A stretch of DNA of 64,000 nt. Origin: Escherichia phage L14. The position numbers and the translations under genes are program-made. The stretch lies in the sequence record OQ992558.1. One strand, 5' to 3'. Positions within the stretch are counted from its first letter, which is position 1; every line of letters begins with the position of its first letter. Shown in pieces: positions 57,478 to 63,419 of this stretch. The notes under the pieces were generated by a model. The model did no database searches. It saw nothing but the letters and a program-made list of their open reading frames with translations, and was not told the DNA's origin.

Positions 57478-57534
57478 AACTTTATGTAAAAATGCTTTAA
57501 AACTTTCATGGTATAATGAATCTAAGTCCTTCCA

Positions 57535-58137
57535 TTATAGATTAAATCCTTCAAAATCAAGAGTATAGATAGTGTATGTTGAATACTTTTTGTACTCATA
57601 TCTATCTGCAATTCTAAATACACTTCCAGCTGGTATCATTACTTCTTGTTCATCTGAAACTAATTCCATATTACGATAACGATGGCTATCTGGAAACTTA
57701 AAACTTGGACTATATTCTTTACAACGTAGAGCTTTTATAGCATACTCCTGGAAATTAAATACCATAGGAGCTTTGAATTCAAAAATAACTTGTGTGTTAT
57801 ACTCTAAACCGGAAGCAAAATGTAGAGCTATATTTTTATCATATGAAGCTGATACTACTTTATCAAATGTAATAATATCAATTCCTTGATTTAATACTTG
57901 CTTAGTCTCAGCTGGAACACCTCTCCAAAGAGGTTTATCGTTTGGTTCCAAACGAGATTTGATTATTTCATTTAACCAAGTATGGTCATCTGGTTTATTA
58001 GTAATACAATGAATTAAAAGTTCAATTTCAGATAAATTAAACCCTTCAGAAAGTAATTCTTCACGAATAGAAGCACGCACCGATGCATCCATTGATTTTA
58101 TTTTAAAATCTTTTAGTTGCATTACTGAGTATTTCAT
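57535..58137 (-). CDS. modA: ADP-ribosyltransferase ModA
   Basis: 200 aa; R-S-ExE pattern (LWRG, SAS, EQEVMIP). Confidence 0.8.
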   Translation of the reverse strand: MKYSVMQLKDFKIKSMDASVRASIREELLSEGFNLSEIELLIHCITNKPDDHTWLNEIIKSRLEPNDKPLWRGVPAETKQVLNQGIDIITFDKVVSASYDKNIALHFASGLEYNTQVIFEFKAPMVFNFQEYAIKALRCKEYSPSFKFPDSHRYRNMELVSDEQEVMIPAGSVFRIADRYEYKKYSTYTIYTLDFEGFNL

Positions 58138-58757
58138 TCAACTACCTCAATATCATAAACTTTAAATGTTCCAAATGAATCGTGTAATTTTTCTTTTGAA
58201 ATAGAAGTTATTCTATACTTTCCAATTGGAATCATCCATTCTTGTTCACGCACAATCATCATTAAGTTATCAGTACGCTCTGAATCTAGCCCATCAGTAT
58301 CTTCATACGTGTACTTAAACTCAGTATTAGGAGAAGAAAGTATAATATCGCTGATATGGTCAGAATAATTAAAAGCTTTATCAGTTTTTAAGCGAAATAT
58401 TATTTCAGTGAAATACTCAACATAAGAAAAACCACATGCTGTGTGCAAACTAGTAGTAAATGAATCTACCCTATTCGTTGAAAACACTTCTCCAACTTGT
58501 AAATCTTTAATGAGTTCTTTTGTCGATTTTGATATACCACGATATAACTGATAAGGTGATTTAGTTAAATGCTTTTTAACGATTTTATTCAACTGCCGAT
58601 GAAGAGCTTCATTCTTTTTAGCTTCCATACATTGCCAAAGAACTGACTGCTCAAAGTCAGTAAATTTTTCACAGACCTTTTTATACATATCATATTGAAA
58701 ATCAACGCTTTCAGCTTTTATAGATAACTGTTCAACATCTGCAAGATTAATAATCAT
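58134..58757 (-). CDS. modB: ADP-ribosyltransferase ModB
   Basis: 207 aa; paralog of ModA with LYRG ... EQEWMIP; GGAGG RBS. Confidence 0.8.
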   Translation of the reverse strand: MIINLADVEQLSIKAESVDFQYDMYKKVCEKFTDFEQSVLWQCMEAKKNEALHRQLNKIVKKHLTKSPYQLYRGISKSTKELIKDLQVGEVFSTNRVDSFTTSLHTACGFSYVEYFTEIIFRLKTDKAFNYSDHISDIILSSPNTEFKYTYEDTDGLDSERTDNLMMIVREQEWMIPIGKYRITSISKEKLHDSFGTFKVYDIEVVE

Positions 58758-58783
58758 GATAGCCTCCGTATACTTCAGAAGCT

Positions 58784-58813
58784 ATCATATCATCGTTAGA
58801 AAGGAAAGTAAAC
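58784..58813 (-). promoter_or_regulatory. T4-type early promoter for modB-modA
   Basis: minus strand GTTTAC-18nt-TATGAT. Confidence 0.5.
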
Positions 58814-58824
58814 AACTTTTTGAA

Positions 58825-59007
58825 TTATTTTGCCCAAGGAGCCCAAGGCGGAGGGTCAAGATGGTATGAAGCTAGTTCTTCTAGAAGAGCATCTGGGGCT
58901 TCAATTCCATAATTCTGTAATACTATACGGTACTCTTTCTTATAATCACTAGAATCATTCTGGATATTCGTAGAATGATTATCTTCTAACATCTCAAATA
59001 AATCCAT
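58825..59007 (-). CDS. hypothetical protein (60 aa)
   Basis: coding-strand ORF. Confidence 0.45.
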   Translation of the reverse strand: MDLFEMLEDNHSTNIQNDSSDYKKEYRIVLQNYGIEAPDALLEELASYHLDPPPWAPWAK

Positions 59008-59015
59008 ACTAATTC

Positions 59016-59486
59016 CTAGCGATAAAAACCAAATTGACGATTAGCTTCAATAATCTTTCTTTCTTCTTCGGACATTCTCCAGCGTAGTCCAACATCAAAA
59101 TGAGCCCAGACCATCTTAACAAATGCATTTATATCTTTAATATCTTCAATAATGAATGATTTACTTTTAGAAGGTTGACTCGCTAATTTAACTTTATCGT
59201 CTTCAAACAGGTCAAAAAGACCATATTCATGGGCTCTTTTATAGCCTTTAATAGTTAAAGCTTCAGAAGAAGAAAAAGGTGAATCAGTATTCTGCAAAAT
59301 ATCTTCAGTATGCTTTATAATTAGAATAACATTTTCTGGATATTTTCTTTCTTTTATATCTTTAATTAAAAAATCCGGATTTTCTGCTAAAGGAATAATT
59401 AATGAGCATTTTTTACCAAGAGTATTTACTGATTTACCTTCTTTAGACATGAATTCTACTGAATAATGTTTTGCTACTTCAATCAT
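59016..59486 (-). CDS. hypothetical protein (156 aa)
   Basis: coding-strand ORF. Confidence 0.55.
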
Positions 59487-59639
59487 GTGATTTCCTTTTG
59501 CCTACTAATGGACCATCGGGAATTTTGTTTTCCTGGATATATTTCTCATTTTCTTCCATCATTTTACTACCGATTTTAAGAAGCAAATCCATTGCTTCAT
59601 TTGCTTTAGCTTTAGCCTCTTCTAATATCATATCTCTGT

Positions 59640-59843
59640 TCACGATTTATCCCCATAGATGTCTCTCATTAATTTAAGCGCTGAGCGTTCTAATTTCTTT
59701 TCTTTCTCAGCACTAATCATTGATTTCATCCATTCTTCCGATTCGTTCTGCATTTCTTTATTTGCTTGTTCAACCCAACCATCATCAATATACATCGAGT
59801 TTGGTCTATTGAACCATTCAAGCATCTTCTTCAGAGCTTTCAT
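59640..59843 (-). CDS. hypothetical protein (67 aa)
   Basis: coding-strand ORF. Confidence 0.45.
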
Positions 59844-60315
59844 TTGTTTTACCTAAAACAACAGTAGGAGCATCATCAAATTCATGAATTTTGAGCAAAT
59901 TTGGATGTAAACTATTCCATACAGAAGAAATAAAGTATGATAAAGCATCTTCACTCGCAATTATAAATTTATTTCCTTTATCTATTTTCCAACTATATAC
60001 TGAATCGTACGAATAAAAAGATAAAGGTTTATTATTATATTGTTCTGCGCTAACATTAATGTATTCTGATTTAGTAAATGCTTCAATTGCTCTAAACGGA
60101 ATATTTGGTACAGTTTCAATAATACCAATCTTTTTAAGTTTTATTTCAGCATCTTCTGGAACTGGCATTGAAACGAAATTTTCTACGAGATACATTGGGT
60201 CACAATAACCCTTATCAATCATTACTGCTACGGTAATTGGAACGTCTTTAGCAAACGACATACTATTACTGCTAATATACATTTCAAACAAAATCGCTTC
60301 CATAATTTTCCTCAA
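59818..60315 (-). CDS. hypothetical protein (165 aa)
   Basis: coding-strand ORF. Confidence 0.5.
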
Positions 60316-60653
60316 TCACAAGATGTAGATGAACAACTAGAATCACAAGAACTTCCACATGAATCGCCTTCCCATACATGAACAGGAACATTAGTATCAT
60401 ATGAATCAGAACTAGACTGTGTATTCTGCGTATTAGATGATGTAGTAGGTGTTGACCAGCGCCAAGGATTTTTATAATATTCTTGGGCTTCTTCATAAGT
60501 CATAGTAACTGCTTCTACTGTTCCATCTCCCATATAAACATACTCAACTACAGTTAAAGGAAGGTAGTCATTTGAAATAGGAACTACACCTTCTCCGGGA
60601 GTTGTAGAGAAAAAATCCGTAAAGAAACTTTTAAACCAATTAAAGATAAACAT
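60312..60653 (-). CDS. hypothetical protein (113 aa) with Cys/Ser-rich C-terminus
   Basis: C-terminal ...[19 protein letters not shown]. Confidence 0.5.
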
Positions 60654-60859
60654 TACAAAAAGCCTCTTTTGAATTCAACTTGCTTCTCGCCATAATCATA
60701 TCGAATCTCTGCATTAAATTCAACAGAACCATCTGCGTACATCATAAATGAATGCACAACAACTTCTGTAGACCATGGCTGTAGTTCATATTTCTTCATT
60801 ACATGCCGTGAAATGATAATATCTAAATCTTCATTTGGTTTAATCCAGCGATTTAACAT
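60653..60859 (-). CDS. hypothetical protein (68 aa)
   Basis: coding-strand ORF with GGAG RBS and early promoter upstream. Confidence 0.5.
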   Translation of the reverse strand: MLNRWIKPNEDLDIIISRHVMKKYELQPWSTEVVVHSFMMYADGSVEFNAEIRYDYGEKQVEFKRGFL

Positions 60860-60885
60860 AGTGCTCTCCTCTATAAGATAATTCT

Positions 60886-60915
60886 ATTATACCATACTCA
60901 TTTTGGAAAGTAAAC
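60886..60915 (-). promoter_or_regulatory. T4-type early promoter
   Basis: minus strand GTTTAC-18nt-GGTATAAT. Confidence 0.5.
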
Positions 60916-60921
60916 CGGTAA

Positions 60922-60949
60922 AATGAAAAAAGGACTCCCGAAGGAGTCC
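60922..60949 (-). terminator. rho-independent terminator after soc (same GGACUCC-UUCG-GGAGUCC hairpin as at 7.57 kb)
   Basis: stem-loop plus U-run immediately downstream of soc stop. Confidence 0.7.
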
Positions 60950-60957
60950 TTGAATTA

Positions 60958-61194
60958 TTAACCACCTATTTCTGTAGGCGTAAACATTGCAGCATTCTTA
61001 GTTTTCCAAGTTGTTGCATCGGAAACTACATCAGAATAAGCTGCTTTTTCTGACGGAAAGATTTGATAATGAGAATCTGCAATACGGTGTTCATTTGAAT
61101 ATACATCAAATGCTACAGAAACTTCCATACCTTTAACTTCTTTGCCTTCACCTGCTGGATGAGTAAAGGTCTTGATGTTAACGAAACCACCCAT
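60958..61194 (-). CDS. soc: small outer capsid protein
   Basis: 78 aa; shares FVNIKTF ... SVAF ... HYQxFPSEKAAYS with my memory of T4 Soc; late promoter upstream. Confidence 0.85.
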   Translation of the reverse strand: MGGFVNIKTFTHPAGEGKEVKGMEVSVAFDVYSNEHRIADSHYQIFPSEKAAYSDVVSDATTWKTKNAAMFTPTEIGG

Positions 61195-61225
61195 AATAAA
61201 CTCCTTTATTGTTTAATTACAGGTG

Positions 61226-61233
61226 TATTTATA
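61226..61233 (-). promoter_or_regulatory. T4-type late promoter for soc
   Basis: exact TATAAATA on minus strand about 30 nt upstream of soc ATG. Confidence 0.55.
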
Positions 61234-61403
61234 TCAGTCTTCAATGAAAACTTGTGCCAGGAATTCGTGTTCATCTTGAATTTGTTTATATAAAGCCATT
61301 ACAGCATTTATATTAGATCTATCTACTTTAAGTTGATAGGCATACCACTCGTATAAATTAATTAAAGCTTTTTGTCGTCTAATAAATTCTTCTTTGGATA
61401 TTT

Positions 61404-61604
61404 TCATTTTGAATGCTCTATAATTAATTTTAAGGCTTCTTTACTGACAAAAATTTCATCAAGACCTTCTTCTACACCCCAATCAACTACACGAAGCTGA
61501 TTAGATAAGAGCTCGTATGTGAGCTCCTTGTCATAATTTTTAAATAGCTGGTCAATACGTTTCTTGTGGGCTTTCTTAAGCTGGCGTTTATTTAAACGAG
61601 CCAT
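61404..61604 (-). CDS. hypothetical protein (66 aa) between 56 and soc
   Basis: coding-strand ORF. Confidence 0.5.
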   Translation of the reverse strand: MARLNKRQLKKAHKKRIDQLFKNYDKELTYELLSNQLRVVDWGVEEGLDEIFVSKEALKLIIEHSK

Positions 61605-62122
61605 TAATAACCTCGGTCTTGACGAGCGAAGTTTTCAGCATTTTTCAGATAATAAAGTTTAAAGATTTCTTCAGCCGTAAGACCGAGGCCTTGGAACATG
61701 TTCAGAACGAAATGAAGAATATCAATCATTTCGAATTTAATTTCCAACTGGTCTTGTGGAGACAAATCAGTAATCAGAGTTTCACGTCGTTCACCATGTT
61801 GAGCTTTCCAAGGCTTCCATACAGCAGATGCATCTTTTTCACCATTGCTCATACCACCAAGAGAAGTCAATAGTTCGCGGAATTCATCATCAATATAATC
61901 TTTCTGATTACGCAGCCAATCAACAACTTCACCCGCAGTAGCCAAATCATCAGGATGACGGTTATATTCAGGTTTATCTTTAGCTAAACGAACCTGCAGA
62001 GATTTCTGCATATCAAGCATAACTTGCAACGGGTCTTTTTCATCACCGAGAATATCCCAGTATTCATTTTGAGCTTTATCAGCGCCTTCAATCAGTTGTG
62101 AACATTCATTAAAGTATGCCAT
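61604..62122 (-). CDS. 56: dCTP/dCDP pyrophosphatase (MazG-like)
   Basis: 172 aa from ATG at 62122 (MAYFNECSQLIEGADKAQNEYW...); ORF-track N-terminal extension is hydrophobic and probably not translated. Confidence 0.88.
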   Translation of the reverse strand: MAYFNECSQLIEGADKAQNEYWDILGDEKDPLQVMLDMQKSLQVRLAKDKPEYNRHPDDLATAGEVVDWLRNQKDYIDDEFRELLTSLGGMSNGEKDASAVWKPWKAQHGERRETLITDLSPQDQLEIKFEMIDILHFVLNMFQGLGLTAEEIFKLYYLKNAENFARQDRGY

Positions 62123-62193
62123 TATTTTTCCTTTCAATTCATGGGTTAGTAGATTAATTATACAATAAATATATAAAGCAATAAGGAGGACAT

Positions 62194-62394
62194 ATGGTAC
62201 AAAAATTAATGGCACTTGTTAATGCCATCAAAGGTAATAAAAAGCGTATAGCTTTTACTATTTCTGCTATGGTAGGAATTTTACTCTGGAACTTTATTTT
62301 ATCACCAATTGCAATTGCGCATGGTGTTAATATTCCAGTAGTTACTCTTGATACATTCGTAGATCTAGCATTTGCTTTAGTTGGGTTAATTTAA
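62194..62394 (+). CDS. small membrane protein (66 aa) on the opposite strand between 61 and 56
   Basis: strong AGGAGG SD 5 nt before ATG; two predicted TM helices; only convincing plus-strand ORF in a minus-strand block. Confidence 0.4.
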   Translation: MVQKLMALVNAIKGNKKRIAFTISAMVGILLWNFILSPIAIAHGVNIPVVTLDTFVDLAFALVGLI

Positions 62395-63419
62395 ATCTTG
62401 GCATATTTAGATAACCGCATTTTAGCCATTAACCCCTGGGCAATATTATTTTTCATATATTCCATAATTTGTTCAGGGGTTGCACCTTCCTTTCTAATCA
62501 TATCATTAACATCTTTTGATTTCCAGGGAGATTTATCCCAAAACATAACCCTTTCTCCTGCATCAACTAATTTAGTCATTCGCTTGATAGTGTCAGGGTG
62601 ACGAGGTTCATTATCTAAAACCCACACTCGTCTATCTTTAAATGGAACAACTTCTAGGTCTAATTGACCACCCGTAATAGCTATACCATTTTCAATAAAA
62701 AGTGAATCTATAGGTCCTTCTAGAACATATACATCACCATCTTTAACTCGTTCGACTCCATATATTTTTGTTGCCTCAGGATAAGCTTTGATGGTGATAT
62801 ATTTTTGAGGAGCATCTTTCTTTAATGCACGTCCTTGAAAAGACTCAGCTTTTCCGTTAGCATTATAAATTGGAATAACAAGACGAGGCTCAGGTGTTTC
62901 CTTTTTATATGTTCCTGGAGCTATACTATTAACTAATTTAGGCCATTCAGTTGTAAACCAAAGATATTTCCATTTATCCTTTGGAATACAACGAGCTTTT
63001 ACATATTTTATAATTGGATGGTCTTCCGCCAGTTTATCTAATCGAACACATGACGGAAGAGATTTAATTATTTTCTTCTCAGGTTGTTTAGGAAGTTCTT
63101 TAGGTTTTTCTACTGGACGACTTTTACCTTTTTCTTTTCTTATTTCAAAGATATACTCACGATATAAATCAGGTTCAAACTCCTTTAAATATATTCCGAT
63201 TGGCGCATGATAGTTACAGTTATAACAATGAATATTTCCTTCATTATTATCACCATAATACCATCCACGAGCTTTATTCTGGTCGGTTTTTGAATCTCCA
63301 CAAACAGGGCATCTAAACCGCAATTTAAAAGTTGAACTATTATTTACTTGTGTGAATTTAGGTAAATGAGCTAATGCACGATACGCAAACTCATTATCAA
63401 TCCAAGGTATTGATGACAT
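62391..63419 (-). CDS. 61: DNA primase
   Basis: 342 aa; N-terminal zinc ribbon CPVCG ... HCYNC and TOPRIM VLEGPIDSLF. Confidence 0.92.
   Translation of the reverse strand: MSSIPWIDNEFAYRALAHLPKFTQVNNSSTFKLRFRCPVCGDSKTDQNKARGWYYGDNNEGNIHCYNCNYHAPIGIYLKEFEPDLYREYIFEIRKEKGKSRPVEKPKELPKQPEKKIIKSLPSCVRLDKLAEDHPIIKYVKARCIPKDKWKYLWFTTEWPKLVNSIAPGTYKKETPEPRLVIPIYNANGKAESFQGRALKKDAPQKYITIKAYPEATKIYGVERVKDGDVYVLEGPIDSLFIENGIAITGGQLDLEVVPFKDRRVWVLDNEPRHPDTIKRMTKLVDAGERVMFWDKSPWKSKDVNDMIRKEGATPEQIMEYMKNNIAQGLMAKMRLSKYAKI

Follow-up and report, generated by a model that had tools for sequence, protein, structure and literature searches.

The interval 58825-60859 of Escherichia phage L14 (OQ992558.1; "the window" denotes the whole analysed stretch of 64,000 nucleotides) is, judged by its sequence, an ordinary copy of the catalogued T4 early cluster modA.2–modA.3–modA.4–srh–mrh–mrh.1–mrh.2. 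As a whole, it is best explained as the orthologue of the early, non-essential T4 operon modA.2–mrh.2, acting by the mechanism proposed below, and we assign this reading a probability of about 0.9. The block itself is already known and has been part of the T4 genome catalogue for decades.

Gene content and predicted early expression

The interval consists of seven densely packed minus-strand genes (Table 1). Neighbouring genes overlap by 1-26 nt or sit 8 nt apart, and together they tile the interval. The initial annotation had listed six uncharacterised ORFs of 60, 156, 67, 165, 113 and 68 aa; their strand and coordinates are correct, and a seventh gene, modA.4, had been missed. The length of 165 aa arises from a mechanical extension to a TTG codon; following the T4 annotation, translation starts at the ATG of position 60303, which is preceded by GAGG and gives 161 aa. 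A Shine-Dalgarno sequence is found 5' of every start codon in the cluster. The first gene of the operon, mrh.2, is preceded by GAGGAG; the start of mrh.1 overlaps the stop of mrh.2 (TAATG), srh and the end of mrh share 26 nt, and the GTG start of modA.4 overlaps the stop of srh (GTGA). All seven ORFs match phage protein families in PHROG (E = 1e-31 to 1e-62), and dN/dS relative to T4 is 0.02-0.40 across all seven genes. Because of the tiling, the family matches and these dN/dS values, the ORFs are more than chance open frames. An Rfam search found no RNA families within the interval, and searches of the cluster proteins against NCBIfam and PADLOC returned only sub-threshold noise.

The corresponding region of T4 (NC_000866 13198-15232) contains the identical seven genes with the same order, strand, lengths and overlaps, flanked likewise by modB and soc; the promoter hexamers and the terminator are shared as well. 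Among sequenced phages, the closest relative of this Tequatrovirus genome is Salmonella phage UAB_60. Every ORF has a close T4 homologue at this position, with a known function for srh and mrh only. Genetic characterisation within the cluster is limited to these two genes, so that the initial description of the ORFs as uncharacterised holds for five of the seven genes. A literature search found no relevant papers naming modA.2, modA.3, modA.4 or mrh.1.

Table 1. Genes and regulatory features of the cluster and its edges, in window positions. Identity to T4 of proteins is global and full-length, with no length change.
Feature	Position	Strand	Product	Identity to T4 (%)	Remarks
RNA hairpin over modB Shine-Dalgarno and AUG	58755..58789	-			dG -20.8 kcal/mol, z -5.9; also in the terminator/promoter scan
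Second early-type promoter, modA.2–modB gap	58784..58812	-		100 (over 81 nt)	GTTTACT-17-TG-n-TATGAT
modA.2	58825..59007	-	60 aa, pI 4.3	98.3	phrog_1647, E=2.4e-31
modA.3	59016..59486	-	156 aa	93.6	T4_MRH PF24070, 132.1 bits, residues 5-147
modA.4	59479..59643	-	54 aa	96.3	phrog_2681, E=1.7e-36; dN/dS 0.08
srh	59640..59843	-	67 aa	98.5	phrog_2441, E=1.4e-40
mrh	59818..60303	-	161 aa, pI 4.5	78.9	T4_MRH PF24070, 148.3 bits, residues 3-150
mrh.1	60312..60653	-	113 aa, pI 4.05	99.1	DUF7206 PF23836, 102.5 bits, residues 3-113
mrh.2	60653..60859	-	68 aa	98.5	phrog_1873, E=1.2e-36; dN/dS 0.04
Predicted early sigma-70 promoter of the cluster	60886..60914	-			GTTTACT-17-TG-n-TATAAT; 10/12 matches plus TG
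Intrinsic terminator-like hairpin with T-run	60930..60951	-		identical	9-bp stem with 5 GC pairs, then TTTTTCATTTT

The proposal that an early promoter drives the interval is supported by comparison with T4, where both hexamers and the spacer of the site upstream of mrh.2 are exactly the same; in the soc–mrh.2 alignment 5 of 108 positions differ, three of them directly upstream of the first hexamer. The site (TTTACT-17-TATAAT with TG) also ranks top among the 21 hits of a promoter scan. Since this number of hits is not above that in shuffled sequences (17.5±4.3), the scan alone proves little. Judged by its coordinates, the site most likely corresponds to Pe15.0 of T4; the second promoter, which marks the downstream limit of the cluster, most likely corresponds to Pe12.8. 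Pe15.0 and Pe12.8 belong to the early promoters of T4, whose characterised downstream genes include modA, modB, srh and mrh (PMC6024815). The predicted transcription starts in L14 lie at about 60879 and about 58777. The terminator-like hairpin, which adjoins soc on the downstream side, ends the upstream transcription unit. The hairpin at modB, equalled by none of 200 shuffled sequences, is predicted to sequester the modB Shine-Dalgarno sequence and AUG in transcripts reading through from the cluster.

In T4, the RNAs of all seven genes are early, and six of the seven proteins (ModA.2, ModA.3, ModA.4, Srh, Mrh and Mrh.2) have been detected, with Mrh.1 given as 'NA' (PMC9697503 supplement). T4 mrh.2 deletions are viable, and the gene is dispensable (PMC8262927). 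In the proposed mechanism, the operon would be read by host sigma-70 RNA polymerase immediately after infection, and translation of its genes would be coupled via the overlapping start and stop codons.

Srh and the T4_MRH family

The two genetically characterised genes of the cluster, srh and mrh, are modulators of T4 late transcription, both at 42 °C and in hosts mutant for rpoH (PMC6070864). Srh is a postulated sigma-32 decoy. Its gene has a dN/dS of 0.02 relative to T4 despite a dS of 0.29, and residues 23-60 of the protein align to sigma-32 region 4 (residues 244-279; BLASTP E=7e-4). The similarity is short, comprising 38 residues at 32% identity. The Smith-Waterman score of 58 lies about 5 SD above that of shuffled sequences (31.2±5.3) and was reached by none of 1000 shuffles. 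The same method gave no signal for Srh against RpoD or RpoS, and no match of the other six cluster proteins to RpoH. The sigma-32 signal is also present in the Dhakavirus Srh, which is 60% identical. No Pfam sigma family, the region 4 models included, matches Srh at E<=1, and among PDB chains phmmer detected no sigma factor. Within the alignment, W23, V24 and M59 of Srh correspond to W244, L245 and L278 of sigma-32, and E46, K47 and K49 correspond to E265, R266 and R268. In an open-complex structure from 2023, the former sigma-32 residues contact the beta-flap tip and the latter the -35 element (PMC10216364). Srh would accordingly reproduce the surface of sigma-32 region 4. The target for which it would most likely compete with sigma-32 is either the core polymerase, at its beta-flap, or a partner protein of sigma-32.

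There are several known proteins with which this proposal can be compared. AsiA of T4 binds sigma-70 region 4. Another small early T4 protein, Srd, is encoded in the same dispensable region as Srh and is described in the T4 record as an 'anti-sigma factor' and postulated RpoD/RpoS decoy. Like Srd and AsiA, Srh is proposed, from its sequence, to redirect host RNA polymerase via the sigma/core interface; in contrast to these proteins, Srh as far as is known does not bind sigma-32 region 4 but looks like it. A further early gene acting on the host sigma-32 heat-shock circuit encodes Rki, which belongs to a T4-related phage, carries a J-domain, stabilises sigma-32 and works through DnaK (PMC3486835). 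Rki is unrelated in sequence to the cluster proteins, none of which has a J-domain in Pfam.

By sequence, Mrh and ModA.3 are paralogues with 22-23% identity, and both belong to the Pfam family T4_MRH, far above its gathering threshold of 24.4 bits. Recombinant T4 Mrh forms a very large homo-oligomer, a megadalton assembly, and unpublished cryo-EM of Mrh is mentioned in the same paper (PMC8076793); our literature search found no follow-up publication of a structure. The AlphaFold2 model of Mrh, for which 39 sequences related to Mrh and ModA.3 were aligned, is unusable (mean pLDDT 35.9). In word-indexed protein searches, the matches listed are almost only Tequatrovirus sequences. We propose that Mrh, and probably also its paralogue ModA.3, may act on the heat-shock/late-transcription axis as an acidic oligomer.

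The mrh gene is also the point where the interval departs most from T4. The Mrh of L14 is a divergent allele, 79% identical to T4 in amino acids, and about 60% of sequenced Tequatrovirus genomes carry this type; across 503 phage records, Mrh identity is bimodal. The nucleotide identity is 84%, and the divergent block has sharp edges at about 59850-60300. Because synonymous divergence is raised too (dS 0.48, dN/dS 0.26), we interpret mrh as an exchanged allele; positive selection alone does not account for its divergence.

Mrh.1 and the other small proteins

The remaining four proteins, ModA.2, ModA.4, Mrh.1 and Mrh.2, are small and mostly acidic; presumably they bind host proteins. No credible solved structure of a relative emerged when Srh, Mrh.2, ModA.2, ModA.4 and the profiles of T4_MRH and Mrh.1 were searched by sequence and profile (best E=0.53). 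Mrh.2 matches 742 phage records in tblastn, including Dhakavirus (68%) and Mosigvirus (57%), and ModA.4 is 82% identical to its Dhakavirus orthologue. ModA.2 has orthologues in Dhakavirus (44%) and Mosigvirus (34%) and a conserved C-terminal motif, LASYxxDPPPW(A/S)PW.

Mrh.1 exceeds the gathering threshold of DUF7206 (25.6 bits) by a wide margin; its family is tiny, with 11 hits among 1.84e9 representatives. The protein consists of an N-terminal aromatic helix, a core, a linker rich in S, T and N, and a conserved acidic Cys tail; Lys and Arg together account for only three of its residues. The Cys/Ser-rich C-terminal tail had already been pointed out, with the correct residues, and is a genuine feature. 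T4 has exactly the same tail, and the core motif W-x-GDS…C…SS-x-SC-[D/E] is conserved at the C-terminus in three genera; on these grounds the sequences mark the tail as a selected C-terminal Cys motif. A chance low-complexity run can be set aside, as the tail is conserved in proteins that are just 41-44% identical. Invariant across the family are only C103 and C112, whereas T4-type proteins have four cysteines. A metal site would call for a conserved set of at least four Cys or His ligands, and one bridging two chains is possible; neither Pfam nor NCBIfam yields a match of Mrh.1 to a metal-binding family. In the AlphaFold2 model, which is of unusably low confidence (pLDDT 50.3, six sequences), the only elements are helices at 3-15 and 53-67 with a hairpin at 34-52 between them, and the tail is disordered. 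More speculatively, the tail (W-x-GDS...C-[D/G]-S...S-S-x-S-C-[D/E]) might constitute a functional module across Tevenvirinae, for example a two-chain metal or iron-sulfur site or a redox-sensitive bait for a host protein; separately, the T4_MRH proteins Mrh and ModA.3 might form a new kind of megadalton assembly acting on the heat-shock response, for which the unpublished cryo-EM of Mrh (PMC8076793) gives a hint. We consider this extended proposal unlikely.

We note that co-transcription of the seven genes is no proof of a common pathway. The five genes modA.2, modA.3, modA.4, mrh.1 and mrh.2 might be unrelated to sigma-32 or transcription, and instead encode small proteins that each inhibit some other host target, such as anti-defence or anti-protease factors, and have only the early promoter in common with srh and mrh. 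To this possibility we give a substantial minority share of our belief. None of the five proteins resembles sigma-32, they are small and acidic (pI about 4.0-4.3 for Mrh.1 and ModA.2), and early dispensable regions of T4 are known to be mixtures of takeover genes (PMC6070864). Moreover, the Cys tail of Mrh.1 is kept even in Mosigvirus, where the similarity of srh is lost. However, ModA.3 is a clear paralogue of Mrh, synteny with srh is retained across genera, and PADLOC offers no convincing match, the sole one being of Mrh.2 to BrxC (E=0.0066, 12 bits).

Variation within Tevenvirinae and significance

The interval had also been described as a variable accessory region with content unlike T4, comprising six novel ORFs. 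There is some variation to be explained. Mrh is the divergent allele described above, and outside the interval L14 differs from T4 in the adjoining soc, a divergent, Mosigvirus-like allele (43% identity to T4), and in the absence of segF. Relatives of Mrh and Mrh.1 were not detectable in our searches outside Tevenvirinae. The genera also differ in content: Tequatrovirus has both types of T4_MRH-family gene, whereas Dhakavirus KIT01 lacks mrh and has a single gene of the ModA.3 type, and Mosigvirus vB_EcoM_TU01 a single gene of the Mrh type. The Mosigvirus Mrh.1 is shortened to 62 aa, without the N-terminal helix, and the protein at the srh position shows no similarity to sigma-32. Nevertheless, a variable region is very improbable. 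Between modB and soc, every ORF has a T4 orthologue and the gene order is that of T4, with which the promoter hexamers and the stretches between genes also agree. About 500 sequenced Tequatrovirus phages carry the block: of 525 phage records with a match, 497 cover at least 80% of it, nearly all with a nucleotide identity of >=90%. Because it is gene for gene at the same place as in T4, the interval is not a new or variable region. A syntenic version is also present in the two further Tevenvirinae genera Dhakavirus and Mosigvirus: KIT01 and TU01 both keep the order soc, mrh.2, mrh.1, srh-position gene, T4_MRH-family gene, modA.2, modB, together with the Mrh.1 core and Cys tail, the DPPPWxPW motif of ModA.2 and the PDGPLVGK motif of ModA.4.

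Less credible still is that modA.4, modA.2 and mrh.2 are spurious non-coding frames: they are short (54-68 aa), have no Pfam family, and modA.4 starts with GTG and is annotated in a shorter version in some GenBank records, but dN/dS relative to T4 (0.04-0.24), PHROG matches (E=1e-31 to 1e-37), orthologues in other genera (34-82% identity) and detection of the T4 proteins by mass spectrometry (PMC9697503 supplement) speak against it.

The orthologous T4 operon hence remains our preferred reading, and its useful outcome lies in three corrections: the interval has seven genes rather than six, mrh starts at a different codon, and the gene content is that of T4. As the residues aligned with beta-flap-tip and -35 contacts lie within the part of Srh that resembles sigma-32, the old decoy idea is directly testable by point mutants. 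The cross-genus conservation of the Mrh.1 Cys tail and of the ModA.2 DPPPWxPW motif provides handles for interaction screens; if the Mrh.1 tail is indeed a functional module, Mrh.1 would represent a new small early takeover protein.

A seven-gene cluster between modB and soc

The interval between modB and soc is occupied by an unbroken run of minus-strand ORFs, as listed for window positions 57500-62500. All six ORFs of the initial annotation are present in this run, but a seventh, modA.4, had been left out. The genes are closely packed: mrh.2 and mrh.1 have a common TAATG, a gap of 8 nt lies between mrh.1 and mrh, mrh overlaps srh by 26 nt, srh overlaps modA.4 by 4 nt (GTGA), modA.4 overlaps modA.3 by 8 nt, and modA.3 is followed by modA.2 after 8 nt. 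Purine-rich Shine-Dalgarno sequences are found 5' of all seven starts, and sizeable intergenic gaps exist only at the two flanks of the cluster.

Features of the modB-soc interval and its surroundings (positions in window coordinates; protein identities to T4 from global alignments; dN/dS from codon comparison with T4)
Feature	Position	Strand	Description	T4 length (nt)	Identity to T4 (%)	dN/dS
modA.2	58825-59007	-	60 aa	183	98.3	0.24
modA.3	59016-59486	-	156 aa	471	93.6	0.40
modA.4	59479-59643	-	54 aa, GTG start	165	96.3	0.08
srh	59640-59843	-	67 aa	204	98.5	0.02
mrh (as listed)	59818-60315	-	165 aa counted from TTG	486	78.9	0.26
mrh.1	60312-60653	-	113 aa	342	99.1	0.04
mrh.2	60653-60859	-	68 aa	207	98.5	0.04
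soc	60958-61194	-				
ORF	61234-61407	-	57 aa			
ORF	61404-61604	-	66 aa			
ORF	62194-62394	+	66 aa, hydrophobic			
Promoter-like site, cluster 5' end	60914..60886	-	TTTACT-17-TATAAT, upstream TG			
Promoter-like site, ahead of modB	58812..58784	-	GTTTACTTTCC...TATGAT			
Terminator-like hairpin	60951..60930	-	downstream of soc			
modB start region with hairpin	58755-58812	-	dG -20.8 kcal/mol, z -5.9			

The annotation of T4 (NC_000866) gives, from modB to soc, modA.2, modA.3, modA.4, srh, mrh, mrh.1 and mrh.2, with gene lengths equal to those of the window provided that mrh begins at ATG 60303. Pfam assigns ModA.3 (132 bits) and Mrh (148 bits) to PF24070 (T4_MRH) and Mrh.1 (102 bits) to PF23836 (DUF7206), and the PHROG label of Srh is 'decoy of host sigma32'. 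Since gene order, lengths, protein identities and the PHROG and Pfam families all agree with T4, the earlier reading of this region as differing in content from T4, which had been its point of interest, is refuted. Likewise, a megablast search of positions 58700-61000 against 50,697 phage records matches 525 records, 497 of which span 80% or more of the query, nearly all with at least 90% identity; all are T4-like coliphages or their Shigella, Yersinia and Salmonella relatives, headed by Salmonella phage UAB_60 (99.7%). The interval is a T4 early gene cluster that is already known and conserved widely; five of its seven members are still functional orphans.

The dN/dS values of 0.02-0.40 indicate purifying selection on all seven genes. 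In a time-resolved T4 transcriptome and proteome, all seven RNAs are early and ModA.2, ModA.3, ModA.4, Srh, Mrh and Mrh.2 are detected as proteins, Mrh.1 alone being given as 'NA' (PMC9697503 supplement). Mrh.1 contains three Lys and Arg residues in total, which may account for this gap. T4 remains viable when deletions in mrh.2 remove as much as 526 bp (PMC8262927).

We note that many GenBank records name orthologues of ModA.2, ModA.3 and ModA.4 'molybdenum ABC transporter, periplasmic molybdenum-binding protein ModA' (e.g. OL656107 13048-13230). The label apparently stems from confusion with the name of the bacterial gene modA; for these 54-60 aa proteins it has no Pfam or NCBIfam support.

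Alleles and distribution across genera

Sliding identity to T4 stays at 96-100% over the interval and drops only in one block with sharp edges (about 59850-60300; 78-88%), which corresponds to the mrh ORF. As a dS of 0.48 accompanies the dN of 0.124, mrh has diverged as an exchanged allele and not by a burst of amino-acid substitutions. Identity to the Mrh of the window is bimodal in 503 phage records (at least 90% in 306; 60-80% in 154, T4 among them), and Mrh falls into two allele families within Tequatrovirus; the genes flanking mrh are near-invariant. The DNA of srh and modA.4 is moderately diverged from T4 (dS about 0.3), with almost unchanged proteins. In UAB_60, modA.3 is one T short in a homopolymer (window 59409) and is annotated as a truncated 93-aa ORF; it is a natural knockout unless the missing T is a sequencing error.

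Beyond the cluster, nucleotide identity to T4 falls to 55-69% precisely across soc. The encoded Soc is 43% identical to T4, 88% to Mosigvirus vB_EcoM_TU01 and 78% to Dhakavirus KIT01; of these four sequences, T4 soc is the outlier allele. Where T4 has segF, a homing endonuclease gene lying between soc and gene 56, the window has ORFs of 57 and 66 aa, both annotated in UAB_60. Gene 56 and primase gene 61 are separated by a further ORF, on the opposite strand; UAB_60, KIT01 and TU01 each have an ORF of about 66 aa annotated at this place and with this orientation.

In KIT01 the order is soc, mrh.2, mrh.1, srh, modA.4, modA.3, modA.2, one extra ORF and modB, without mrh. In TU01, soc is followed by an Mrh.2 homologue (57%), a short Mrh.1 of 62 aa, a 59-aa protein at the place of srh, a 154-aa T4_MRH protein, a ModA.2 homologue, a ModA.4-like protein and a modB-like gene. 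The sole T4_MRH protein of TU01 matches Mrh (E=2.5e-13) better than ModA.3 (E=1e-4); among the three genera compared, Tequatrovirus alone has both paralogues. The synteny in KIT01 and TU01 therefore marks the cluster as an old Tevenvirinae module. Outside this subfamily its proteins hardly show up: with HMMER, an exhaustive search of 1.84 billion representatives yields 11 matches for Mrh.1, only three of them full-length distant relatives. ModA.2 orthologues from three genera (the window; 4572-4751 of L006 and 4872-5060 of L007, loci from other genera) share just 34-44% identity and all end in LASYxxDPPPW(A/S)PW(x)K, which suggests a conserved C-terminal peptide motif.

Promoters and the modB hairpin

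T4 early promoters typically carry GTTTAC at -35 and an extended -10. The early promoter predicted at 60886-60915 in the initial annotation corresponds to the best site of our promoter scan, whose hexamers and spacer are exactly those of T4. The scan taken alone is weak evidence, because its 21 matches do not exceed the 17.5±4.3 expected by chance. The gap between soc and mrh.2 differs from T4 at 5 of 108 aligned nt, three of them immediately upstream of the first hexamer. A second such site, ahead of modB, lies in a region 100% identical to T4 across 81 nt. By their coordinates, the two sites would be Pe15.0 and Pe12.8, named T4 early promoters; modA, modB, srh and mrh are among the characterised genes downstream of DksA-responsive early promoters (PMC6024815).

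The modB hairpin is identical in T4 and pairs the Shine-Dalgarno sequence and AUG of modB with a 5' arm overlapping the -10 of the proximal promoter. This predicted pairing should therefore mask modB translation in read-through transcripts of the mrh cluster; transcripts from the proximal promoter should escape masking.

Srh, Mrh and the tail of Mrh.1

Srh residues 23-60 align with residues 244-279 of E. coli RpoH (32% identity, 66% positives, pairwise E=7e-4). The Smith-Waterman score is 58 versus 31.2±5.3 in 1000 shuffles, none of which reaches 58, and Dhakavirus Srh (60% identical) scores equally against RpoH, again with 0 of 1000 shuffles as high. Smith-Waterman comparison of Srh with RpoD and RpoS gives no similarity, nor do the other six cluster proteins resemble RpoH. 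In the sigma-32 open complex, W244, L245 and L278 touch the beta-flap tip, and E265, R266 and R268 are functionally important -35 contacts (PMC10216364); in our alignment these stand opposite Srh W23, V24 and M59 and Srh E46, K47 and K49, respectively. Srh has no match among the Pfam sigma region 4 models; on sequence grounds, the term that fits it best is short mimic of the sigma-32 region 4 surface, rather than sigma family member. Most economically, Srh would compete with sigma-32 for the beta-flap.

Genetic work on T4 covers mrh and srh, which modulate late transcription at 42 °C and in rpoH mutants (PMC6070864). Mrh produced recombinantly elutes as a megadalton assembly; a 3.3 Å cryo-EM structure is mentioned but not shown (PMC8076793); our literature search found no follow-up paper on it, and sequence and profile searches found no PDB relative. 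AlphaFold2 models have low confidence (pLDDT of 36 in Mrh, 50 in Mrh.1). Searches of the cluster proteins against the PDB (sequence and profile), NCBIfam and PADLOC, and of the interval against Rfam, gave nothing usable.

The Cys/Ser-rich tail of Mrh.1 had been proposed as a possible metal binder or low-complexity tether; it matches T4 in every letter. An alignment of the window's protein with its distant relatives and two other-genus orthologues has an invariant core (Y-x-G-D-G-x-x-E-x-V) and, at its extreme C-terminal end, invariant S98, C103, S108, S109 and C112, contained in the motif W-x-GDS...C-[D/G]-S...S-S-x-S-C-[D/E]. The S/T/N-rich linker from core to tail varies in length and sequence, and the 62-aa Mosigvirus protein has lost the N-terminal aromatic helix and kept core and tail. 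Such conservation across distant relatives and genera makes the tail a selected motif and not filler. T4-type Mrh.1 has two Cys beyond the invariant pair; as each chain offers two invariant Cys, a putative metal site would require a dimer or a larger assembly. This conserved tail is part of the residual value of the interval, as is the Srh decoy hypothesis, which can now be tested residue by residue.
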